From Pseudogymnoascus verrucosus (lineage: Eukaryota): 64,000 bases of DNA. The notes beneath the pieces were generated by a model that ran no database searches, was not told the origin of the DNA, and was given only the letters and a program-made list of their open reading frames with translations. The position numbers and the translations under genes were made by a program. The stretch's first letter is position 1. The number at the start of each line of letters is the position of its first letter. Positions 14,806-30,832 of this stretch are shown here, one piece after another. Location: NCBI GenBank assembly GCA_001662655.1, contig KV460237.1; one strand, given 5' to 3'.

Positions 14806-15557
14806 GCTGCTAGAAGACGCATATTAGTCAAAATCATGCGATTGAAGCCGCATTGTTATTATACAGACCTTGCAAGTAGCACTTAAACTAAAGTAACTAC
14901 CTTAGATTTGCTTTAATTCTGCTATGCTTAGGGATCTAAGCTACGAGTGTTATAGTATATTAAGCGTTTGTTAGGGGGATCTATGGCCCTAAGTACGCTA
15001 TTCGGAGGCCTGGGTGAACCCCCAAACCCCAAAGAATTAGGCTTCTTCAGCCTAGCTGAAAGTGAGACATTGGGCTGAAACCCCAGCGCGCGGGAGCTAG
15101 ACAGTCCCCCAAAGTGTCATTTTGGGCACAAAAGCCCCCACTGTACCCCACGGGACTGTCGGTTTCCCCCAACAGTTCACTCTTGCTCTGGCCCAGCTCA
15201 GCTTCGGCTCAGGTGTGGTCAGGTTTTCTCGGGTGCGCTATGGTATACTAGCTGCTAGAGACGCTATACAATTTGTGTGTAGTTTATATATTCAAGTACT
15301 TCCTCTTACAGACAAGTATACCTGGCTGATGGTTGCCCTGTACCCAATCCGAAAGCGATCTTCCTTGCCTAGATTTTTTTGCCATCGCCAAGAAAAACTA
15401 ATAAGAGGTGGTCGAAACATAGACAGTCTTGGTCAATTACGATGAATACATTTAGAGTCCACCCGCTCCTATGCCCTCTACATCGGAGTATGAGAAAGGA
15501 AAGAAGAGGACCACAGAACTTTGACGCCTTATAGATAGCACGATCGATTGCTTCGCC

Positions 15558-16943
15558 ATGGACCTTAGTTCTCGTCTCAGTATAAACATTCCCTCGATAG
15601 CAGCAGATCTGGAGGTGCTCCTTGATCCAGATTTGTGCGCAAGCCTCCACAACCAAATTATCGAACAAGTCTGTCTTGTACAGCCTAGTCTGCGGCGGCT
15701 CGTCCGACGGAACGTCCTCGCTATCCCTCACTCGGAAATCCACGACCGCAACTATGAACCTTCACACGCAATCACCGAGTCCGAGTTACCAGATATCTTA
15801 GGAATAGCGCTCACTGACTTCCTGGGGAAGATCGATGTCTTTGAATTTCCCGAAGGAGACTATCATAGTCACCCGATGACACCATATTCCTCGCCACCTA
15901 TACTACCCAATCTATGGAGCTTTGCGGATCACCGTCTTGTTAAACGTGGGCAAGACCAAAGTAATCTTATTTTACTCTACAGTCATGCGCAGTCTTCAAC
16001 TAGTGGGGGGCTGTTTCTTGATACGAATGAGCAAGTGGCAAATTGGCTTGATTTGCCAGGCTCATTCTGGCCTGGGAATGGCATCCCGTTGAGTGAGGTG
16101 CTAAGGAGATGGCTTTTTATGTGGGAGGTGGGAAAGTTCCACTTGCTAGAAACTGGAGAATTCGGTGTGAGGTCATGGATCGATAAGGAGGTTGATGAGG
16201 CTGTAGAAGCCTGGGAGAGATTGGTTGTGGTGATTGAAGCGAGAAGAACTGTGTTTCATCGAAGTGGAAGTGATGACGACGAATTCCGACCTATGATTGA
16301 GAATGGAGTCTTGCAGAGGTATCAAGGCGATGGGTTTTCACGACATTTCTTCGCAATGGCCAAGAAGCCACCTCATGGTCTGAAGTTCGTAGCGCCTGGT
16401 ATAACTACGTGGGACTCGACTTCTTTTCAGGCGGTTTACTCAGCTGCCGGGGACAATAGGAGACGAGCCCGTCAATCCCACCGTCTCGGTCGTGTCATCC
16501 GAGAAGAAGAAGAGCATACGCCGATGATCATTTTCCCTGCGGCAAACGAAATACCAGCAGAAGTCCTTGAGCGCAGAGCAGCCGACGTGAGTGGATCTCA
16601 ATGGATGGACGATTTGATCATCGTGGAACGAAAGCTCGGATTGTACTCGACGCCTGGGGACGGATTTGGTAATACGGTAACACTCATAGCTGATGTAGAT
16701 AATCGTGCTTGTTTTCAAAGATGCGACAGATGCCCCTGGCTTCCGAACGGTGGCAGAAAGACGACCTTAAAGGAAATGTTGGAGATATGGACTGTCTTGA
16801 TTGAGATGGATGTGTGGAAAGTTGATGAGAATGGAGTGGTTGGAGGCTTGGAATGGTTCCAACGAGGAACAAACAAGAGACAATTAGAAGATGGAACAGA
16901 GGTCGATTTGAATCTTATTTGGGGACCTGAGGTGGAATATTAA
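15558..16943 (+). CDS. Intracellular hypothetical protein (461 aa) with internal duplication; weak SUKH/Smi1-Knr4-like flavour
   Basis: Intronless ORF with no signal peptide. Repeated motif L.E.L..W....E...(F/W): LSEVLRRWLFMWEVGKF and LKEMLEIWTVLIEMDVW. The family assignment is inference only. Confidence 0.75.
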   Translation: MDLSSRLSINIPSIAADLEVLLDPDLCASLHNQIIEQVCLVQPSLRRLVRRNVLAIPHSEIHDRNYEPSHAITESELPDILGIALTDFLGKIDVFEFPEGDYHSHPMTPYSSPPILPNLWSFADHRLVKRGQDQSNLILLYSHAQSSTSGGLFLDTNEQVANWLDLPGSFWPGNGIPLSEVLRRWLFMWEVGKFHLLETGEFGVRSWIDKEVDEAVEAWERLVVVIEARRTVFHRSGSDDDEFRPMIENGVLQRYQGDGFSRHFFAMAKKPPHGLKFVAPGITTWDSTSFQAVYSAAGDNRRRARQSHRLGRVIREEEEHTPMIIFPAANEIPAEVLERRAADVSGSQWMDDLIIVERKLGLYSTPGDGFGNTVTLIADVDNRACFQRCDRCPWLPNGGRKTTLKEMLEIWTVLIEMDVWKVDENGVVGGLEWFQRGTNKRQLEDGTEVDLNLIWGPEVEY

Positions 16944-17081: not shown

Positions 17082-17979
17082 CTAAGAACTTTCGCAAGCT
17101 CCTGAATGGCAATTACCAGCACCACAGTGCGCCGACGAATCCCCACAGTACCCATAGATGCTACAGCAACTTCCAAAGGGCGATCCTTGGCACACTTTGT
17201 TACCTGCGAAGTCAGGACCACATGACCCATCTACACTAACTCCGCTCTCATCCGTGTCACATTCTCCAGAATGGTAGTTCCCAGGACCACAGTAATCATT
17301 AGTACTTCCGCAATAGCCACTGGTAGAGCAGCAGTTTCCAAAACCAGAGCCCCCACAAAGCCAATCTGAGTTCGCGGGACCGCAGTGTACGCAGGTCCCG
17401 TCTTGGGATACAGAGTTGTCAGGATCTTCGCACAGTCCAGAATAACAATTGCCTGGGCCACCTTCCAGGAATGATGATCAGTATCATTCTCAAAATGGCG
17501 CATTTCTGAAGTTACAGAAGTCTGATCCTGTTCCACAGTGTTCGAACTTCGAGCAGCATTCGGCTCCAGGACATACCTCATGGCCATCGCTAGGTCCGCA
17601 AAGACCATCTGTCGAGACTGTAGGTGTGGTAACTGTAATTTGCGACACAGTTGTAGCCCAACTTTCTAGAGCTTGAGTGCAAAGCGCTGTGAGGTTGTCT
17701 GCGTGCCATTCATAAACGTCTGGTTCTGATAGTGACAAGAAAGTCCGATCATCACATGGCAGGCTTGTATTTCTGATGGCAGTCAGTCAGGCAAAATTTC
17801 AATACTGAAATATACTCTAAAAGAAGAGGTGGAGAAAATTCTTACAATGCTGTAACACAGGCCTCATTCACATTCGTCTTGAGCGCCGTGCCTACTAGAT
17901 CATAATTATGATAAAGTCGTACCGCTGAAACAGCCGACGTCAAGACTGCGCATACTAATAAAGAGTTTGAAAGTATCAT
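17082..17979 (-). CDS. Secreted chitin-binding protein with three CBM18 (hevein-like) domains
   Basis: Manual splicing of 3 exons: signal peptide MILSNSLLVCAVLTSAVSA; ACVTAL|NTSLPCD...NLTALCT; then CPGAECCSKFEHCGTGSDFC|GPGNCYSGLC, CGGSGFGNCCSTSGYCGSTNDYCGPGNYHSGEC, CQGSPFGSCCSIYGYCGDSSAHCGAGNCHSGACESS*. The last exon is absent from the ORF track. Confidence 0.85.
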
Positions 17980-18257
17980 GTTAAAGGATAATTACTCTTT
18001 CTCAGCACACCAGAAGAGCGACCTAGAGGGGGGGTGCCTAATGGGACTCTTTATAAACTTTAGCGCCCTGTGCTATGTTTTGAGTTATTAGTAATAGGGA
18101 AATGATTCCCACTGCTTTGAATATCAAGTTCCTAAGGCGCAATGTCCCTTAGTAAAAACCTCCAAGGTAATTTTTTAAGCTATGTTTTTGAGATCCAATT
18201 TAGCGTTGGTCTACTCAATAGATGAGCATCAAGATCCGTTGATATCGTTACCCTCAT

Positions 18258-18529: not shown

Positions 18530-18644
18530 GAAGGGCCTTCATCATGTGAGGACTCCAAAGTGTTAACGATATATTGCCCGCCAGTTTTCAGCCCTCAAAT
18601 TCTACGAAGCACAGCCTGCATTTCATCTACTCATGATTTTATAA

Positions 18645-21600
18645 ATGAAGCTCGACACAACATTTCGATTGACGGCCTTGGCAGTCGCAGGACTTCTCTC
18701 CAACTGTGCCTCCGTCTCCGACGTCTTCTTACAGTACCGGTATGCCATAGTATATCATTTTAAATACGGGAGGTACTAATAGTAACAGACAGGACAATGT
18801 TACTAGAGAAGTCTATAATAAAACCTTGTACAAACCCTTGTTTGAAGCGCCTTCAAATTCAACCCCTCGATTCCTAAATATTTCCCAGAAAGATGTCAAC
18901 CCATTGCGAGGAGCGGCCGGTACCCTCGCGCTACCAAAGAGACAAGAAAGTACAGTTGAGGACGGAACCTGTGCGCCTGGTACTCCATGCTCAAACGGAG
19001 CGTGTTACAGCTCTTCGGGTTTCTGTGGTTATAGTCCGGATTTCTGTGGAGCTAATTGCATATCCAACTGTGATGCTAAGGCACAATGTGGGAAGTATGC
19101 AAAGACTGGAAAAGAAAAGTACCCACTGAATGTATGTTGCAGCGAGTTTAGATTCTGTAAGTTACAACCCATTTGCATTGATAGTCTCACTAAGAGTAAC
19201 ATGGAAATAGGTGGTACTTAGGAGAAATTTTGCGGTCTGGGCTGTGATGAGAGTAGTGGGCTTTGTGGCCCTGCCCCAACTCCACGCCGTGGAGGCAACA
19301 AAGCTGGAAGGAAGGAAATCGCATACTATGAGTCCTGGTATATACAAAACTATATAAAATTTTCCTCTCTGTACGAATTGATGCTGACATTGAATATAGG
19401 GCGAACACTCGTTCCTGTGATGTTGTCTCTCCTGAAGATTTCGATGTCGCAGGTCTAACACATTTGAATTTTGCGTTTGCCTTCTTCGACCCAACGTCCT
19501 TCCAGATGACAGCAATGGATGCAAATGCGGACTCCTTGCTGGCGAGATTCACAGACCTAAAGGTAAACCACACTAGCCTCGAAACATGGATTGCCATTGG
19601 AGGTTGGAGTTTCAACGATGAAACCAACTTCCCCAACACACGAACGGCTTTCAGTGACATGGCGTCGTCAGCTGGGAATCGGAAGAAATTCATAAACTCT
19701 CTTGTGCACTTCATGAAGGCATATGGTTTTGATGAGGCCGATATAGATTGGGAATACCCCGGAGCCGAAGATCGCGGTGGTAAAGAAGAAGACACGGCTA
19801 ATTTTGTTGACCTGGTTAAAGAGATGAAGGCTGCTTTTGGATCAAGATATGGTTTATCTGTAACTCTCCCAGCTAGCTACTGGTATCTTCAACACTTTGA
19901 CGTCAAAGGCATGGAGCCACATGTTGACTGGTTTAATATTATGTCATATGACATTCACGGTGTCTTGGATTCAAGTAATCGGTTTTCTGGCCCATTCGCA
20001 CGACCGCACGCCAACCTGACTGAGATCGATGAAAGCCTTTCACTTCTATGGCGAGCCGGCCTCTCAGCTGGTAATGTCGTTCTCGGCCTTGGATGGTACG
20101 GGCGTTCATTCAAGCTGGCAGACCCTTCCTGCACAACTCCAGGATGCAGGTTCTCGGAAGGTGCAACCGCCGGTGATTGTACTGGCGCTCCAGGCGTGTT
20201 ATCCAATGCAGAGATTGACAGGATTATTGAGAAGTATGACCTCACTCCAACTTATGATGACAAGGCCGCCGTAAATTGGATTGTGTGGAATTCCGATCAA
20301 TGGGTTAGTTATGATAATGCTAGATCTTTTAAGAGGAAGATCGACTACGCCAACAACCTCGGCCTTGGGGGCACAATGATTTGGGCCATTGACCAAGGCT
20401 CCTCAAGCGGCAAGACACTAGATGATTACCATGGCGGAGTCTTCCTACAGAAAGCCTCCGTCTTCAATGGTAAAGGTCCGACGCTAGCAAAAAAGTCTTA
20501 GCGACGACACAGCATGAGACCGACGCCCAACACAGCTGTTATACTACCTTCTGTGGTCAAGAATGCGCTCCAGGATATAGTGGTGTTAGCCAAATGAAGG
20601 GGCGAGTGGGAGAGCTGGGAGCTGCCACAGCTTGTACGGGAACCGATTTCCAGTCATTGTGCTGCGCAACTGCTACTTTCCTAGGGAGGTGTAAATGGTA
20701 TGGATGGCGTGGCGAGGGTTTAAGCTGTCAAGGTGGTTGTCCATCGGATCACACCCTGATCGCTGTCAACACCAATCATTACTTCAACTATCCCGAACAG
20801 AAATTCTTAGAGGATCAGACTTGTGCTGGTGGCACACAAAGCTATTGTTGCAACAACGCCAAGGCATCACCAATGTTCGGAAAGGATATTGAGCTTGTCG
20901 ATCATAGTGATCTCGAATCCGATCCTAAGAACTTAGCTAAGAGAGCTACTGCTGAGTGTGCTGTTTTTGGGGTAATCGCAGGAGGGATATTCGTGTGGGC
21001 AACAGTTGCAACTGATGGTTTTTTTGCCCTTACGGGTGGAGCACTAGCGGGTGCCATAGCAACTAATATTTGTGCTAAATCAGGAATGGACAAGGCGTCC
21101 ACAGCTGCTCTCATTGGCGGCTAAAACACTCGGCTTGCAGCATCTGGAGGTGCAAATCAAAAGTCCAATAGCAAGCCTGCTAATACTAACACAAAACCTG
21201 GGAAAAAGGTGGATAGCAACGCCGGCTTCTATGGAAGATACAAAATCGCTGACTTTAGTACGACCGGTACATGTCAAGTCACCTACACTTGTGAATACGG
21301 ACTTGGTTTTGATCAGGTGAGCTGATCCACTTAGCTGACAGATTTTAGCTAACAGCAATAGGTATGTGACGATCAACGTTGGGGACTTGATAAAGTCTTG
21401 GGCGGTATACACTCTGTGTTTAATCGCGAGACTGGACCCAGAACCGGTAGACAGAAGGGTCAATGGAGTGGCAAGCATCACGCGAATTGCAGAGGCTCAT
21501 TTCCAGATAGAACTCTTCAAGTTATTACCCTCATGTGCACTATCTAACTGTTACAGCTCGCGATCAGTGTGGTGATGATGGGAATCGATGTCGTTGTGAG

Positions 21601-22505
21601 CTCGACGAATTCCCTCTCGACAGTCTCCGCGAGGCAGGTGTCTTGCCCCAAGCCCTGCGTATGCTCAACGACAACGAGAATGGTCGCCAAGGACGTGACT
21701 ACCAGGACTAGTTGGAAGCAGTATGGGAGCCATGCAGTTCACTGCTTCAGCGCCCACCGCCGATCACCTGGGAAATAGGTGCAATCCCGCCGAATGACGC
21801 TCGCGCTACCTCGAACGCTATCATTCCTAAATATGGAGTAAGCAAATCATCAACTACGGAGTAGATAGTTTCCAGCCGGGCTAATAATCATTTAGTGGGA
21901 CTCTACTAGTGGATTTGACCCCTACTTCGGAACGTATGTCGTGGGAGCTTCAACCGTTGTCTCTGATCACGGCTTCCGTGTGCACTCTCAAGACCCCCTC
22001 TTTTATCAACACAATTGGGAGGCCCAAAATTACAGCCCCGATCCGCATGGCCTGCCGGCGGCACAGCGGCCTACAGACGTTGTGAGTGCGCACTTGGCGA
22101 GGAAACGCTGGGGCGAGGAGCAGGCACAACATCTTCATCTAGACGTCGACATCACCATCACTGCTGGCGACTTGATTCCACTCCCTACAATCAACGTTGG
22201 CATAGATGACAGTTCGAGTGCGCAACAGGACCTTATGGAGGAGACAGCGAGGGTTAGGAAGTTGTTGCACCGAAGGGATGCCTGCGCCGACGGTGGTGGA
22301 GATACCTGCTGAAAGGACTGATGCCAACCTTGGACATATGGCCACGAGAACCGAGGCGGCAAGGCTGCCCCCCCACCGTGACCCTATAAATAACAACGTG
22401 GAAACTGAGGATAGTGATGACGAGTGGGGAAACTTGGAGGAGCGGCAGAGGCTGCACCAGAAGTACGAGCATCTAAGGAGACATGCGCATGCACATGCGA
22501 ACTGA
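18645..22505 (+). pseudogene. Subgroup C (killer-toxin-alpha-like) GH18 chitinase with two CBM18 domains and a C-terminal extension; disrupted
   Basis: Signal peptide MKLDTTFRLTALAVAGLL; CBM18-like modules; IAYYESW, THLNFAF, IAIGGWSFND, FDEADIDWEYPG, MSYDIHG, GGTMIWAID. Lesions: in-frame TAG 19219-19221, 1-nt frameshift in the A6 run at 20489-20494, TAA 21122-21124, TAG 21709-21711. The 3' end is uncertain (22312 or 22505). Confidence 0.88.
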
Positions 22506-22880
22506 GATAGGAATAGTAATTAAGGGGTATATGTTAAGTTTACTCAAAAAAACAAATCCCTTCTGATTCTGTTGTTCATAGGGCTCTAACCACACCGTCA
22601 TATATAAAAAAAGACCACCGCTTGTGAGTCGTCAGGATATGAGTCACGTGACCACACGGGGCAAACTACGTGCAGATCGCCTACTGGTCTGCCCCGCTAC
22701 TGTGGGGTTTGGGCGAGCCTCGGTTTAGGCAATGAGGGAAAAGGGGAAGGCGTCCTAATCTCAACTTTAACCACAGTCGATTCTTACCAAGCCTCAAACT
22801 ATGTCTTTTCTTACATTATAAAGGCGTGCCTAGTTATGGTTATAATTGATTCGTATTTGTATCAGCTATAAATATAGAAT

Positions 22881-25258
22881 ATGGCGTCAAATACCACGCA
22901 TGATCGTCATCGGCTCCAGTGTGATCACCCCCGTTGCAAGAGGTCATACTTGCGAGCAGAACATCTAAATCGACACAAGCTTACTCGTACGCTTTCCAAT
23001 TGAAGCCTCCGTCTAATGGCTAATAAAATTATAGATAAACAACGTGCTTTTGCATGTTATCTCTGCAACCGGCAATTTACTCGGAAGTGGGTGATTGCGA
23101 CCAAGGGATTTTCTATCGCATCGGTCTCTACTAATGTCCTCTTAGTGATTTGCTTCAGGTCCATCTCCGAAGACACGAGAGTAGAACCCTTGAAAATACT
23201 GAGACCCAGCGGGATCCTACACCGCCACATCAGGGGCATCGTGATGCCTTGCTAAGAAGAACCAACCCGCTGTGGAATGAGGGCTTGTCCATTCCAACCT
23301 TTCACGGAAGGCCAATCTTCGCTACGTCCAATGTCACAGAACCATTAGATTCCATATCTCTTGAAGAGGAATCAGCGTTTGAAAATTCCAACTTACTACA
23401 CCATGGATTTACTACAACCTCAGAGGATGCTTACCTAGAAGAATATGAGGGTCTACAAATATCAGATGAGAGCCATAGGTCTTTGATGGAGGAGTTCCCC
23501 GTAAGCCAAAATCTTCTGTAGTCTGAAACAAAATTGTGTTAGAAGAGACTAATAGTACCTAACAGGGACTTAATTATATCCTAAAAGACAAGGGTGTTAT
23601 AGAGGGATACTTCGAATATGGACTTACATATTTAGATGCCAACATGCCCTTCGTTCATGTGCCCACGTTACATATGTTACCGCTTTCGTCTCTTCTCCTC
23701 CTGGCGATTTGCTGTTTGGGGGGAATACTCAGCCCGATCTCTGATGCCAAACAAGCAGCAAGAATATTCGAAAAAAGTATTCTCCAACAGATACAGTCTG
23801 TAAGTATATATATCACGGGTAGATTTTGTTTACCCTATTCTAACATCATATTAGGCCATTTTAACTGAACTAGAGCCATCTAATGACTCTTTACAAGTAA
23901 TGTAAGCATACACGCTAGCAGCCTGGCAGCTTCTATCGTAAAGACTAACGAACTTTAAGGGTGATAGTCGAATATATAGGGCATTATTCTTCAACTGGTG
24001 AACAACATAGAATAGCCAATTTAATCCATGAATTGGTTATACTTGTAAGTTTGCTTTGATAACTACGGGATTGCTCTCTAGCTACTGATGTCGTCTTCTA
24101 TTAGCACGTCCGACGCAAACGCCTTTCACTTCACAGTTATGATGCCAGCGTATGCGGTGAAGAGTCCCTTAACGGCCGATGGAGAAGCTGGGCACAGCAT
24201 GAAGCCTTGATCAGGTAAGAATCATCGTTATAGATTTATTTAAAACTAATCTCATCTCGTAGATTGGTGCATTGCCTCTTTCTTAACAATACTCTACATT
24301 CCATCCATTTCACGTATCCAAACCTACAGCTAGCCAGCTTGCTAAAGCTTCCTCTTCCATGTTCATCGAACCTGTGGAACGCCAAAACGCTAAATGAGTG
24401 GAAAAGAGAGGTTTCCCAAATTAAACCTGAAGTAGGAACTTGCTACCTACAAACAGCAATGCGAATCCTTTTAGGAGACAGTCAAAGATCCGATAACAGA
24501 ATAGTCCAGGGAGATTTCGAAGAGAATCCGTTCTCCATGTGCATCTTAATACAAGGTATTGCATCCGCAGTAATCGAACTCAACCAAGCGATGCCATCTA
24601 CTTCTTCGAATGCAGTTCGACTCCTCAAATCAGCAGACTTCAAAGCTGCCTTAGCTCAGTGGTGGGAGCACTTCAGCAAAATGGACGACAAAATACGAGA
24701 AGAAGAGATGGCCATATCGGCTCTCATTTACTACCACTTTACCTACATTCTCTTATATGTGGACGTTAGCAGAATTGCGATGGCAGCTGGTATTCCACAC
24801 GCCCACGATAATGCCGACCCATTGGAACAAGATGGCGAGGCCCAAGCAAATTTAAATGGAGAACGAGTTTACCCCCATCTACTAAAAATCTTACAACTCT
24901 GCTTGGATGAACGACATAAACCTTCGCTAAGGCCATTGGATAGAGGTTATACTGAATTTCTAACGGTGCTCATATACTCTGTGTACCTCACAGAGCTCGA
25001 AGATCAGAAAACACGGCAACCAGATCGAAACCGAGACAGGACAGGGGAGCATCTTCAACCAATCGCCCCCTTAGATCTTATTGCAATGAAAATCGATGTA
25101 CACAGAACTATGAGGGCTGTGCAAGATCGACTAGTTTGCAGCTCTTGGGAGCTAGGTACGTTAGACATACATGCTATGATTAGCTAAACTAATGTTCTGT
25201 AGGTCAAGAGGCTAGTCAAGTTCTCGACTCAATTTTAGGAGGAACAAGTCTCATGTGA
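22881..25258 (+). CDS. C2H2 zinc-finger transcription factor with fungal-specific TF (Fungal_trans-like) domain
   Basis: Spliced fingers CDHPRCKRSYLRAEHLNRHKLTH and CYLCNRQFTRNDLLQVHLRRH; YLDANMPFVHVPTL...LLLAICCLGG; WRSWAQHEALIR; LPLPCSSNLWNA. Many short introns; internal boundaries approximate. Confidence 0.8.
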
Positions 25259-25363: not shown

Positions 25364-27215
25364 TTACACACGCGAAACATCCTCAAACTCTACTGCCCTT
25401 TCTTTGGGAGTAGCTGGAGTATCTTCCTGCTGCGCACCACTTGATTCATCATCACATCCAGCCGCCCTATTAAGAACCCTTTCAATCCTCGCCTTGGGCT
25501 CGTGGAGCGTTGCCACAACCTCATCACCAAAGAATGCCGAAATATCCTCCAATGTAACACCCTTCGTCTCCGGCAAGAAAAAATAATACACAAACCCAGC
25601 CGCTGCCGTGCATACGATGAAGACGATATAAAATAAATACCCAATGTCGTTGTATATCTGGAGACCGACCTGCTGAAGAATGACGCTAATGACCTGCCCC
25701 CAAAATGTGGATATGGCCAATCCTTGTGCACGCAGCTTTGTTGGAAATATCTCGGAGAGATAAACCCACACTGTCCCAAACATGAAGACGGAGTACACAA
25801 ATGAATGAACAAAAATGAAGGCAACAGCAGCTGCTTTGCCAGCTTCGTTCGTGGAGCCGGTGTATAGTTTCGAAAGAGGCATGAGAATGATTAAATCGAT
25901 AAGCAACGTTACTGCCCCGATCCCTATAATGAAATCAGCGGGAGACATAAAGCTAGGGCCAAATGAAAGACTTACACATGGAAGTTCTTCGACCCATTCT
26001 GTCAGCCACAAAGCCAATGTTTACCAGGACTCCGACAAAGCCAGCGAGCCCATAAAACCCGGAGAAAAAGAGTGTCTGAAGTCCTGGGAATCCAATCTGG
26101 GTGAAAAGCTGCGATTGATAGGCGGTAATGACTGGTGTTCCGCCCAAATTGTTGAAAACAGTTATGAATATACCAAGTGCTATTCTTTTCCGTGCTGAGG
26201 GGGTTTTGAAACACTCTCTAAATCCGCCTTGGCCTTCGATAGAGATTTGTTCATGCATTTGGGTGAACTCTCTACTGACATAGTCCTCTCCAAGCATACC
26301 GTGGACTCTCATAAGAACTGATGCAGGTCAGCAGATGATATGTTATGCGTAAAAGAAAATCTTACTTTCGTATGCCTCCTGATCCCGCTCTTTCTTTATC
26401 ACTGGGACGTGTTAGACCGTTTTAAAAAGGGGAGAGAGAATTCCATACACCACCGAGGAGATTCTGGAAGGAAGAATCCCCCAACGAAAAGGATTACTGC
26501 GAACGGAGCTTGGCAGCCAAGTGGGATTCTCCATTGTGCATTTCCAGTTGCGAAAAAACATGCGTAGCCGACCCAGTTCGAGCAGAGAACACCAAAGGAG
26601 GCCATGGCAGCAAACAGACCAACAATCATTCCTCTGTACTTGGGCAGGGCAAGCTCTGCATTGTACACCGGGACTATTGATAGTAGGACTCCAATTGGAA
26701 GGCCTGCAATGACTCGACCAGCAATGATCATACCGATGTTTATGGCAGCTGTCTGTATAACGGTCCCGACAATGACTGTAGCTGACTTAGATAAACGAAT
26801 GGCAGACACTACATTTTGCATGCTTACCGACAGCGGCGGATCCAACAATGCATCTCTTTCTTCCAAATCGATCTGCCATCCATCCGGAAGAAAGCCCTCC
26901 AATTGCTGTTCCAGCCGTGTACGTCGATGCTATAGTTCCTGAATCGGTGAGGACTCTGCCTATTCTTAGTGAAAGGGTACACAATACCTGTCAAAACCGC
27001 ATTGCCAAGCTTGTTGTGAAACATATAGATTTTAAAGCTAGGATGGGCGATGGTTGTACTAAAGATGCCTAAGTAGTTGTTAGCTCACAGCACAAGCTGT
27101 GGTGAAGCACACGTTTACCAGTATCAAAGCCGAGTAGAAAGGCACCGATGCAGGAGAAGACGGCGCAGAGCAAGCTGGCCGTCGGAATGCCAAATGTCGA
27201 TCGGCCTAATTCCAT
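25364..27215 (-). CDS. Sugar porter (MFS) transporter
   Basis: MELGRSTF...GAFLLGFDTG, ADRFGRK, GRVIAG, VPVYNAE, LPESPRW, ADRMGRR, WVYLSEIFPTKLRAQG, FFLPETKGVTLEDI; multi-exon. Confidence 0.92.
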
Positions 27216-27396: not shown

Positions 27397-28031
27397 ATTC
27401 CTGCGTATTACTTGCAACCCACTGCATACCTCGGGATGTCAATATGATTTCTCCGCATTTTTGGAGCTGTGAGAGCATCCCATCCCGTTCTGAACATTCA
27501 GTTTTAACCCCTCATCCCACTCGCTTATTTACATCCCGTTTTACGACCCACCTTAACCCCTCTCTCCGCTCAACTATGGTAGGGAACGAAATCCGTTCCC
27601 CAACAATTCAAGTCAAGTGTCTCGTGTCTGACCCGAATTTCCGAGTCCGAATTACAAAGATACTCTTTTTAGCCTCTTGCTCCGTTCTTTTGGCGTTTCA
27701 TTGGATTGCGGTTGAACTGCGCTCTGACACGAGAAATCATTAGCCCAAGGGAAGTTTTCCCGAACTGTTACTATCATCCCGTTTCCACTTGATATCTGTA
27801 ATATTGTGGTATATCATGAGGCAAAATGATGAAGCATGCATGTGTTTAACGGGATGTATGTTCTTAGCTCTAATAGATAAATAATGCTAGATCGATATTG
27901 GCCGAGGCTCTCTATAAAATCAAAGTATATCATAAACTCTAAAAGCCCATATTGGCCTTCAAATTTTACGCTTGATTTTTTTAACTTCTCCTGCTCTAAC
28001 AGAATCTCGAGCTCATTAGAATACTTTCTCA

Positions 28032-30832
28032 ATGGCCGGATACACAAACCAAACTCTCAGGTCTGGCTGGGAGTTTAAACAAGTCGGAGCGACTGAGGTC
28101 CCGGAATGGACTTGCGGATTTCTGCCAGTGGCACAATTTCCTACTAACGTCCATCTTGATCTTATGGCCCACGACAAAATACCGGATCCTTTTATTGGAC
28201 TAAACGAATACAAAGTTCAATGGGTTGGAGAACAACAATGGTTGTATAGAACCACATTCGAATGCCCCTCGGTCTCAGGCCGAAAGACCATCCTGCAATT
28301 CGATGGCCTTGATACCTTTGCGATTGCCTCTCTGAACGGAACAAAAATCCTAGAAGCGGAGAATATGCACCGCATCTTTCGAGCTGATATCACCGGGACT
28401 GTGGAAGAGGGCGTAAACGTGCTGGAGATTCTGTTTGACAGCGCTATCATCAGGGGAAAGCAACTGATGAAAGAGACTGGGTTTAAACCCGTAGGTTTTA
28501 CATCATCTACTGATAAAAGCCGTCTTCTGGTTCGGAAAGCCCAGTATCATTATGCCTGGAATTGGGGTACGTTTAAAATCTTTTTGGAGGCCAATTTGCT
28601 AATAGTCAACAGGCCCTGAGCTTACAACTTGTGGACCATGGCGCCCAATCCATCTCGAACAATACTCAGCTCGGATCTCTGACTTACATGCCAAAGTGGA
28701 AATATCTGTTGCAGACAAGACATCATCTATATCTATTTCAGCAGAGGTCGAGGGTGGGAAAGAAGGGGACATCATCAAATATGCTTTGACCGGTCCTGAT
28801 GGAGCTTCTATATCGACGAGCAGCGTGAAGGTCACTGAAAATAAGGCAACTGATCGATTTGAGGTGCACGACGCCAAATTTTGGTGGCCTGTTGGTTACG
28901 GAGAACAGCCACTATATACCATTGACGCTCACCTCATTCGAGAGGTTAGTGTATTGGATTTTTATTTGAGATCCGTCTGACTTTTTTTCCAGGGAATAAA
29001 TATACATCAACGAAGTCGAAAGCTAGGCCTCAGAACTGTATCTTTAGTACAGCGACCCATTGTTGATCAGCCAGGGACAAGCTTCTTCTTCGAAGTCAAC
29101 GACGTACCAATATTTAGTAGTGGATCGAACTGGTGCCCCGCAGATCACTTTGTTCCTCGTGTCACCCCCGAGAGATATCGCACGCTGTTGCAGATGGTTG
29201 TTGATGGGAATCAAAATATGCTACGGTCAGTTTTAGTCAATTTAACACTCAAGTTTTCAATCACTAATGTGTATATAGTGTTTGGGGCGGTGCAATCTAC
29301 GAGGACGATGTTTTCTATGATATCTGCGATGAACTTGGGATCCTGGTGTGGAATGACTTCATGTTCGCATGTGGCACATACCCAGCAGATGAAGACTTCC
29401 GTGGCCGCATCACCGAAGAAGTTGAAGATAATATCAAGCGCCTTCGTCACCATCCCTCTATTGTTGCATGGTCTGGTAATAACGAGGACTACCTATTTGC
29501 CGAACTATTTCACACCTCCTACGATATCAACGACCCAGATCCCGACAACTGGCTAAAGACAACGTTCCCTGCACGATATATTTATGAAAAGATGCTCCCA
29601 GAGATTTGCAAGAAGCTCATTCCCGATACTCCATACCACCCTGGATCGCCATGGGGCGGGAAGTATTTCAACGACCCAACTATTGGAGACACACACATGT
29701 GGGAGGGTGAGTACGAATCCATCTGATGACGAGTGCAGTTACTAATAGACAGTCTGGCATCATGTATCTCGTCCATGGCAGGAGTACCCAAAACTCGGAA
29801 GTCGATTCATTTCCGAATTTGGAATCTCATCTCTTCCTCATTTAGACACAATCGAATCATTCCTCATTGACTCGCCGCCATCAGAGAGACATCCCAATTC
29901 CCGCACCATCGACCATCACAACAAGGAACTGCAGCACGAACGAAAAATGGCTACATACCTCGTGGAAAACTTCAAATACGGATTTGGCTTGGAAGAATAT
30001 ATTTATATTACACAGCTAAACCAGGCCGAGGCTATGACTTGCGCCCTGAGAGCCTGGAGACGAGAGTGGAAAGGAACAGGAAAGGAGTATTGTGGTGGAA
30101 GTCTCATATGGCAGGTTCGTATAATTCTTCTTCAGTTACGTATAATGCTACTAGACTAATTGTTCAAAGTTTAATCCTACGTGGCAAGTCACGTCGAAGG
30201 CCCTGGTGGATTACTTCAACCGTCCGAAAATGTCCTACTTCACAGTCAAGCGAGATATTGCGCCAATATCTCTAGGAATGGAGAGGAAGGAGATCAAAAC
30301 TCCCCGTTCGGAATTTACCAGGGCGTTCATTGATACCGAGACTCGTATCTTGGGATGGGCGACAAATGTTACCCTTAAGCCTGTTTCCTACTTGCTGACT
30401 ATAAAGGCATTTGAATTGTCTACTGGGAAAGAGTTGTTTTCCCAGACAAAGGTCCAGGAGTTGGGGGCCAATATTACAACGGAGCTGTTTGACATTGAGT
30501 TGCCAAGGCCGTGTATAGTTGATGAGCCCGTTATCATGTCCACGTGCCTACAGACCGAGCAAGGTACTACTATCGCACGTTGCACGAACTGGCCCCAACC
30601 ATACCGCTATATAAACATGCCGAAACCGAAGCTTGTTATTGGAATTGACGGTGATCGGATCTCGGCACGAGCAAATGTACCGGTGAAAGGACTGGCCTTT
30701 TACGTCAAGGATGTTGATGCGGTAAGCTTCGATGACAATATGCTCGATCTTGTGCCTGGCGATGTGCAAGAGATTGTCGCGCGTGGATTGAATGGCAAGG
30801 CTGTAACCTGGAGATACTATGGTATGGAGTAA
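28032..30832 (+). CDS. GH2 beta-mannosidase (intracellular type)
   Basis: VAQFPTNVHLDL...IPDPF, LQFDGLDTFA, VRKAQYHYAWNWGP, WWPVGYGEQPLY, GSNWCPAD, WNDFMFACGTYP, RLRHHPSIVAWSGNNED, RFISEFG, GGSLIWQ; no signal peptide; several introns. Confidence 0.92.

Follow-up and report, generated by a model that had tools for sequence, protein, structure and literature searches.

A disrupted chitinase gene with a nuclease-like C-terminus

The stretch of DNA analysed, which we will call the window, comprises 64,000 nucleotides of contig KV460237.1 (assembly GCA_001662655.1) of the fungus Pseudogymnoascus verrucosus. Reading positions 18600-22600 in three frames reveals one plus-strand gene with fungal introns, located at 18645-22505 and referred to from this point on as the chitinase-nuclease gene. 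Its product would comprise two CBM18 chitin-binding modules, a GH18 chitinase domain, a Cys-rich module, a dibasic Lys-Arg (KR) site, a hydrophobic stretch bracketed by Cys and, at the C-terminus, a Cys-rich domain that, according to the structure model of a homologue, adopts the fold of the Bacillus nuclease NucB. As judged from its reading frames, the gene is a pseudogene and this copy is dead; it is valuable as a pointer to the family to which it belongs. All features in the list that follows lie on the plus strand, and homologues are cited by their P numbers.

18645-18716, plus strand: putative start codon and signal-peptide-like N-terminus (open reading frame; signal peptide suggested by a hydrophobic stretch)
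18970-19269, plus strand: two CBM18 (hevein-type chitin-binding) modules (Pfam Chitin_bind_1, E = 3.3e-10, two stretches)
19440-20396, plus strand: GH18 chitinase domain (PF00704, E = 6.3e-66; 74% identity to P0001 over 306 residues)
20490-20501, plus strand: frame change at a run of six A (20490-20496) and in-frame TAG (20499-20501); tblastn alignments of P0001, P0002, P0005 and P0008 change frame there
20534-20851, plus strand: Cys-rich module, as found after GH18 in group C chitinases (57% identity to P0001)
20939-20944, plus strand: dibasic KR, a putative Kex2-type cleavage site
20957-21073, plus strand: Cys-bracketed Gly/Ala hydrophobic stretch of 39 residues, long enough for two helices (putative hairpin and membrane insertion)
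21122-21124, plus strand: in-frame TAA in the linker (frame reading and tblastn)
21269-22010, plus strand: predicted NucB-fold domain in four exons, 21269-21316, 21362-21520, 21568-21837 and 21896-~22010 (tblastn to P0002 and P0005)
21604-21609, plus strand: Asp-Glu pair, putative counterpart of NucB Asp93-Glu94 (D in 60/61 and E in 60/61 sequences of alignment A3)
21679-21681, plus strand: Asn, putative counterpart of the NucB metal ligand Asn117 (N in 61/61 sequences of A3)
21709-21711, plus strand: in-frame TAG within the nuclease-like domain (frame reading and tblastn)
22011-22505, plus strand: poorly conserved tail with a His-rich motif at 22470-22502, then the stop codon (reading frames; C-termini of homologues)

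Every peptide quoted in the initial annotation of this region is present where stated, namely LAKR (20933-20944), the Gly/Ala hydrophobic stretch between Cys residues, TCQVTYTCEYGLGFDQ (21269-21316, immediately before an intron), VCDDQRWG (21362-21385) and RCELDEFP...NENGRQG (21592-21693). That annotation had also placed the region behind a GH18 domain, as the Pfam match bears out together with the two Chitin_bind_1 matches, and had regarded the gene as pseudogenised, with which the lesions agree. Comparison with intact homologues by tblastn yields a tally of four in-frame stops plus one frame change at the least and probably a second. The first of the stops, a TAG at 19219-19221, falls in the second CBM18 module, which is itself split by an intron. 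A second frame change or an unrecognised intron lies between ~22210 and 22312; downstream of that break, the frame ending at 22505 encodes the His-rich C-terminal motif typical of the homologues. The GT..AG introns 21317-21361, 21521-21567 and 21838-21895 explain the remaining frame switches. The pseudogene call is made because four nonsense codons, unlike a frame change at a homopolymer, cannot be put down to sequencing error. The run of six A is a typical spot for such errors, and it is the nonsense codons, not the frame change located there, that carry the call. The copy nevertheless retains the DxxDxDxE catalytic motif of GH18 (19728-19763), as well as the Asp-Glu pair and the Asn of the C-terminal domain.

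Two other accounts of the stops were rejected. Repeat-induced point mutation as the cause of decay would be expected to leave its mark on dinucleotide ratios, which are 0.78 for TpA/ApT in both gene and window, and 1.24 in the gene versus 1.19 in the whole window for (CpA+TpG)/(ApC+GpT). Reassignment of a stop codon does not apply either, since frame changes go along with the stops in the tblastn alignments.

A family of killer-toxin-like chitinases

Homologues were gathered by three routes. Querying 2,414 candidates in a word-indexed search with the 216-residue piece following GH18 returned three longer proteins, one of which is 60% identical and two of which, from lichen-forming fungi, span the whole C-terminal region. 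With P0002 as the query, an exhaustive phmmer search produced 2,000 matches at E <= 0.001, mostly to the GH18 and Cys-rich parts alone, and about 20 among the 150 matches listed also span the C-terminal region with its CxxDEFP motif. Two profile searches with an alignment of the C-terminus contributed 21 and 29 further proteins, from Xylaria, Parahypoxylon, Pestalotiopsis, Plenodomus, Colletotrichum, Talaromyces, Aspergillus, Penicillium, Mollisia, Cadophora, Sodiomyces and others. Intact homologues are found across Pezizomycotina, lichen fungi included, with the parts in the same order: CBM18 twice, GH18, the Cys-rich module, KR, the Cys-bracketed hydrophobic stretch, a linker and a Cys-rich domain of about 210 residues. 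The motif of the C-terminal domain goes far beyond chance, as the same motifs recur in the same order among 62 aligned homologues. The source annotation of these proteins reads chitinase, GH18 or hypothetical only, and their precomputed Pfam lists consist of PF00704 and PF00187, which leaves the C-terminal ~450 residues unannotated.

The window gene combines CBM18 with a GH18 domain bearing DxxDxDxE and has no LysM match in Pfam, which is the domain content of subgroup C-I (CBM18, without LysM) as defined in 10.1101/2024.10.25.620242. On its domain content, the gene is a member of the secreted group C ('killer-toxin-like') GH18 chitinase family of Pezizomycotina. The Hce2 effector domain, which the literature would lead one to expect, had no match in any protein scanned with Pfam. 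In many members the tail, which is poorly conserved, closes with a short motif rich in His and Arg that resembles H..RRH..H and might conceivably serve in metal binding or sorting. Such ends occur in the window (22470-22502) and in P0002, P0005, P0006, P0007, P0020, P0048, P0155, P0182 and P0188.

The C-terminal domain and NucB

AlphaFold was applied to the homologue P0159, a 228-residue fragment, with 62 sequences. The resulting model has a predicted local distance difference test score (pLDDT) of 84.2 and a predicted template modelling score (pTM) of 0.83, with four of the five models at pLDDT 79.7 or higher. It contains a strand at residues 96-101, a second strand at 116-121 and a helix at 122-147, that is, a beta-beta-alpha arrangement, with the Asp-Glu pair on a beta strand and the Asn in the first (N-terminal) turn of the long helix. 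When 48,161 representative chains were searched with VIA-align, two chains only reached Z >= 2. The first was NucB (6ejs_A; Z = 9.1, root-mean-square deviation 2.0 Å, 104 of 109 residues, model residues 20-158) and the second the streptococcal nuclease Sda1 (Z = 2.0). Foldseek against the PDB likewise returned NucB for its top three entries (probability 0.97, E = 0.008-0.019, TM 0.57-0.61 on the NucB length), whereas the fourth had a probability of 0.02 and everything below the NucB entries 0.04 or less. Sequence identity between model and NucB is about 12-14%. The NucB fold occupies the first ~140 residues of the ~210-residue domain in the model. The last ~70 (YGFDS...C..TY...DHGFR..DDP.F; model ~158-228; window 21896-~22010), with pLDDT 67-78, lie outside the NucB match and matched no fold in the structure searches of the P0159 model. 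The AlphaFold check proposed by the initial annotation, run here on P0159, recovered a predicted NucB fold.

At the sequence level, the resemblance falls just short. Against PF14040 (DNase_NucA_NucB, gathering cut-off 23.8 bits), the window piece scores 15.8 bits (E = 0.02), under the cut-off, and a read-through with X in place of the stops scores 14.2 bits. PF14040 appears at E <= 0.1 in 15 of the 62 aligned members (best E = 5.5e-4, 20.8 bits) and is the only recurring non-chitinase Pfam family among them; those matches for which coordinates are available fall around the DEFP...N..QG motif. In the ESM Atlas, each of the three closest clusters belongs to PF14040 (0.89, 0.88 and 0.88, with 177 shared features for the first), a result that was taken as a lead only. 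Alignment A3 shows D in 60/61, E in 60/61 and N in 61/61 sequences, together with five invariant Cys.

These residues acquire meaning from work on NucB, a beta-beta-alpha-metal nuclease in which Glu94 takes the place of the usual His base (PMC5758888). There, the Asp-Glu pair belongs to a DRDE motif and the metal-binding Asn to DNRG; Asp93 and Asn117 bind the metal, a buried His53 positions the Asp, and mutating Asp93, Glu94 or Asn117 abolishes activity (PMC5758888). Judging from the range of the Pfam alignment and from secondary structure, the Asp, Glu and Asn of the fungal family would be equivalent to those of NucB. On the model, then, the C-terminal domain is a distant relative within the NucB fold whose active site looks intact, and it is not a member of Pfam PF14040; 'distant' is used because the PF14040 cut-off is never reached while the fold matches NucB. 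The NucA/NucB assignment of the initial annotation holds for the fold and the conserved catalytic residues and fails for the Pfam cut-off. Its description of the domain as a His-Me finger holds at the level of the superfamily only, because NucB has Glu replacing the histidine base (PMC5758888).

As compared with NucB and NucA of Bacillus (PDB 5OMT, 6EJS; PF14040), the domain shows the same core fold, an Asp-Glu on a strand, an Asn at the start of a helix, a secretory-pathway context and Cys residues of the disulfide type. It differs in size, having ~210 residues with an added C-terminal part as against ~110 in NucB, and in setting, since it ends a eukaryotic, intron-containing chitinase of 1,100-1,250 residues while NucB is free-standing.

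The dibasic site and hydrophobic stretch

The KR site and the hydrophobic stretch, both singled out in the initial annotation, turn out to be conserved features of the family. In 40 members the sequence covers the end of the Cys-rich module as well as the beginning of the nuclease domain, and 37 of these have [KR]R no more than 60 residues past the Cys-rich module. In 32/40 a dibasic site precedes a hydrophobic window (Kyte-Doolittle >= 1.5 over 17 residues), the stretch usually being 40-60 residues long with a Cys near each end. The linker that follows is basic and rich in Pro and Gly, without a conserved second dibasic site. From these sequence features we infer that Kex2 cleaves at the site, that the stretch forms a helical hairpin and that a disulfide joins the Cys residues bracketing it.

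Variable tails on the chitinase scaffold

Variation behind the chitinase part was surveyed by means of three hidden Markov models (HMMs), for the Cys-rich module, the hydrophobic stretch and the nuclease domain, which were cut from the alignment and run on all fetched proteins. The Cys-rich model matches 101 of them. At least 250 residues follow that module in 66 proteins, with the nuclease domain present in 49 and not in 17, a sample biased toward nuclease tails because two of the searches were aimed at the nuclease. Six of the 17 (P0036, P0045, P0051, P0053, P0076 and P0078) share a related tail that begins with an Ala/Glu-rich, Cys-bracketed hydrophobic segment without KR. P0045, P0051, P0076, P0078, P0083 and P0096 have a domain in which C..DE[FYV]P is followed further on by an Asn; P0036 is homologous along the tail and is without this motif. 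When the window family was compared by hhalign with an alignment of these six motif-bearing proteins, the two matched with 97.4% probability (E = 1.4e-11) over 166 columns, the motifs being aligned. P0096, from Drechslerella, scores 22.3 bits against PF14040.

P0053 departs from this pattern. Its segment following GH18 is 44-49% identical to the sister set, yet residues 452-611 of its 611 match the RNase domain PF00545 (26.7 bits versus a cut-off of 24). We take its C-terminus to resemble RNase T1, catalytic residues included. This protein suggests that nuclease warheads are exchanged on the chitinase scaffold. Other tails gave a weak LRAT/NlpC-like match in P0042 from Penicillium (residues 891-927, E = 0.0032) and the MU117 'meiotically up-regulated' domain in P0112 (residues 951-1058, E = 2.6e-14), and many long tails of group C chitinases, of up to ~1,100 residues, had no match in Pfam. 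The survey for variable C-termini behind a conserved GH18, which the initial annotation had recommended, thus yielded a second NucB-like clade and one RNase T1-type tail. As read from these predicted proteins, a thin sample, C-terminal enzyme domains are exchanged behind a conserved chitinase scaffold.

Relation to known systems and possible function

The beta subunit of zymocin, from K. lactis, is hydrophobic. The alpha chain and the beta chain of this toxin are cleaved out of a single chitinase precursor and deliver a separate ribonuclease (PMC13442484; 10.1101/2024.10.25.620242). Both zymocin and the Pezizomycotina clusters of Heneghan, Salzberg and Wolfe resemble the present family in having a CBM18 and GH18 group C chitinase, a putative processing site that would yield two chains, a presumed nuclease payload and a neighbouring gene with carbohydrate-binding modules only, of the LysM type there and of the CBM18 type here (10.1101/2024.10.25.620242; PMC4392113). 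In the zymocin-like systems, however, the nuclease is a tRNA or rRNA ribonuclease of another fold encoded by a separate gene, whereas here it is fused and NucB-like; and those clusters have C-II chitinases with LysM and often an immunity gene, neither of which is recognised here (10.1101/2024.10.25.620242). As regards the zymocin parallel drawn in the initial annotation, the published zymocin-like clusters pair LysM-bearing C-II chitinases with a separate toxin gene. C-II chitinases fused to the Hce2 effector (Stergiopoulos et al. 2012, via PMC8042737, PMC13556262 and 10.1101/2024.10.25.620242) also join a domain of cytotoxic type to a group C chitinase, with a nuclease fold in its place here. 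Work from the Wolfe laboratory treats C-II chitinases with separate toxins and mentions the Hce2 fusions (10.1101/2024.10.25.620242). Group C chitinases are large and reportedly induced when fungi meet fungi (10.1101/2024.10.25.620242), and a 2015 review states that none had been biochemically characterised (PMC4392113). The word 'nuclease' is absent from the main text of a survey of chitinase architectures in 373 genomes (PMC8042737), and full-text searches of literature outside subscription journals yielded no description of a NucB-like or other nuclease fused to a fungal chitinase. The family is new in combining a killer-toxin-like chitinase with a NucB-type nuclease, each being of a kind already known.

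Nuclease colicins and bacterial polymorphic toxins are single polypeptides that bind a receptor with one part, pass the membrane with another and end in an interchangeable C-terminal nuclease, beta-beta-alpha-metal enzymes being among the warheads. These are bacterial systems with a tightly linked immunity gene. The present family is fungal, with targeting by a chitinase and no demonstrated immunity gene, and the likeness is one of domain order only. As for the polymorphic-toxin architecture claimed in the initial annotation, alternative C-terminal domains on a shared scaffold speak for it, and no adjacent immunity gene was recognised in Pfam scans of 14 neighbouring open reading frames.

We put at about even the chance that, in intact members, the fused chitinase-nuclease acts in effect like a zymocin made from a single gene, its warhead being a DNase. 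CBM18 and GH18 would bind to another fungus and open its chitin wall. Kex2 would already have cut at KR in the Golgi of the producer, giving an alpha-like chitinase piece and a piece joining a beta-like hydrophobic stretch to a gamma-like nuclease; the hydrophobic hairpin might then bring the nuclease up to the target membrane or through it, and the nuclease would there degrade nucleic acid by way of a Mg/Mn-dependent beta-beta-alpha active site. The order of the domains, their conservation and, on the model, the fold are shown, whereas we infer secretion, chitin binding, wall opening, Kex2 cleavage, translocation and nucleic acid cleavage alike, so that such a delivery system is plausible. 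The window copy is no longer capable of any of these steps. A more tentative extension, which we regard as doubtful, is that group C chitinases of filamentous fungi carry a fungal polymorphic-toxin system, with chitin targeting, a Kex2-released hairpin and an exchangeable nuclease (a NucB-type DNase in two clades and an RNase of the T1 type in another), and with a cytosolic neighbour (for example of the family of the open reading frame at 15525-16943, described below) as antidote. If true, this would be the fused counterpart of three-subunit zymocin and would explain what C-I chitinases kill with.

The link between zymocin and chitinases has so far extended no further than the C-II subgroup, with its LysM and its separate toxin genes (10.1101/2024.10.25.620242), and a fused NucB-fold nuclease gives the subgroup without LysM a concrete candidate activity. 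Should it be a delivered toxin, the principle of 'carrier plus nuclease' known from killer yeasts, colicins and polymorphic toxins would reach single fungal proteins, with a bearing on mycoparasitism, biocontrol and the biology of lichen or endophyte communities.

A number of observations weigh against a delivered nuclease. The PF14040 check recommended by the initial annotation came out negative, with no sequence of the window, the 62 homologues or the sister clade at or above 23.8 bits (the highest scores being 20.8 within this clade and 22.3 within its sister), and P0002 and P0003, the closest full-length homologues, have no PF14040 match at E <= 1. Searches of PDB sequences returned nothing at E <= 10 for the family profile (A2), chitinases only and no NucB for the A1 profile, and chitinases or chance rows, again without NucB, for the single sequences P0002, P0159 and P0088. 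The Foldseek E-values of 0.008-0.019 miss the 0.001 line, and an earlier AlphaFold model from 17 sequences had a pLDDT of 38.8 and was not used. In 7/40 members, mostly the Aspergillus/Penicillium set, there is no window as hydrophobic as the threshold; a two-helix hairpin could equally be a membrane anchor, and a disulfide-rich domain makes awkward cargo for membrane crossing. The RNase-tailed case is a single predicted protein from one assembly. NucB itself serves as a scavenging and biofilm-dispersing DNase, not as a toxin (PMC5758888), and the published zymocin-like clusters use C-II (LysM) chitinases while the window gene has no LysM (10.1101/2024.10.25.620242). Pfam scans of 14 neighbouring open reading frames, in which no dedicated profile was run, revealed no gamma-toxin or immunity family; zymocin-type toxins are, for their part, very divergent (10.1101/2024.10.25.620242).

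Several of these points would fit a surface-anchored or secreted chitinase with a DNase for feeding or wall work, the main rival reading, which we consider possible though on balance unlikely. The hairpin would then sit in the plasma membrane of the producer with chitinase and nuclease both outside the cell, and the nuclease would digest DNA from lysed prey or from ageing hyphae of the producer, much as Bacillus uses NucB. NucB is secreted and cuts extracellular DNA without specificity (PMC5758888), nutrition and wall remodelling are further tasks of fungal chitinases (PMC4392113), a pair of hydrophobic segments behind a signal peptide would leave the flanks on either side outside the cell, the five invariant Cys of the nuclease domain are as expected of an extracellular protein, and the same scans found no immunity gene. 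Yet the KR conserved in 37/40 members, located just before the hairpin, would sever the chitinase from such an anchor; the scaffold belongs to a chitinase group related to the carriers of zymocin; and the relative in which an RNase T1-type domain replaces the DNase behind these modules suggests an exchange of warheads more than scavenging.

That the NucB-fold domain is no longer an enzyme, and instead has a structural role or binds, for example, nucleic acid, wall polymers or the chitinase part, appears improbable to us. In its favour, the domain has double the length of NucB owing to an added C-terminal part of ~70 residues without a known fold, it scores under the Pfam cut-off, and its catalytic role is predicted only. 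Against this, the three residues essential in NucB are near-invariant in 61 sequences from several fungal classes and recur in the sister clade, and such near-invariance would be hard to account for in a domain that does not catalyse. A chance motif in junk behind a dead chitinase, for which one might cite the many stops of the window copy and the weak Pfam match of the window alone (E = 0.02), can be given next to no weight: intact homologues conserve the whole region and the confident model matches NucB alone. Chance resemblance is refuted by the conservation across 62 members, the invariance of D, E and N, and the match between model and NucB.

Neighbouring genes

Downstream of the chitinase-nuclease gene are a gene for a C2H2 zinc-finger and fungal-specific transcription factor (22878-25187), an MFS sugar transporter gene on the minus strand (25364-26929) and a GH2 (mannosidase-like) enzyme gene (28020-30832), none of which has an evident link to the chitinase gene. 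On the upstream side, an intact plus-strand open reading frame at 15525-16943 encodes a protein of ~460 residues (P0204) without a Pfam match. In the Atlas, P0204 falls among clusters of hypothetical proteins from Ascomycota only. Its relatives, at 23-26% identity, lie beside a chitinase gene in two of the six loci with enough flank, at the following positions.

L006, 183-1034: relative of P0204
L007, 2011-3291: relative of P0204

The open reading frame 15525-16943 is a candidate partner or antidote of the chitinase-nuclease, the antidote role being pure speculation.

Between P0204 and the chitinase-nuclease gene, a small gene at 17090-18010 on the minus strand encodes a CBM18-only protein with a signal-peptide-like start and is arranged head-to-head with the chitinase gene. 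In an analogous way, LysM-only genes adjoin C-II chitinase genes (PMC4392113; 10.1101/2024.10.25.620242). The same divergent pairing of a CBM18-only gene with a chitinase gene is seen in all three metagenome loci with at least 3 kb of upstream sequence (L006, L011 and L012), where the CBM18-only counterparts are placed as follows.

L006, 1261-1778: CBM18-only counterpart
L011, 427-927 (to ~2346): CBM18-only counterpart
L012, 1158-1367: CBM18-only counterpart

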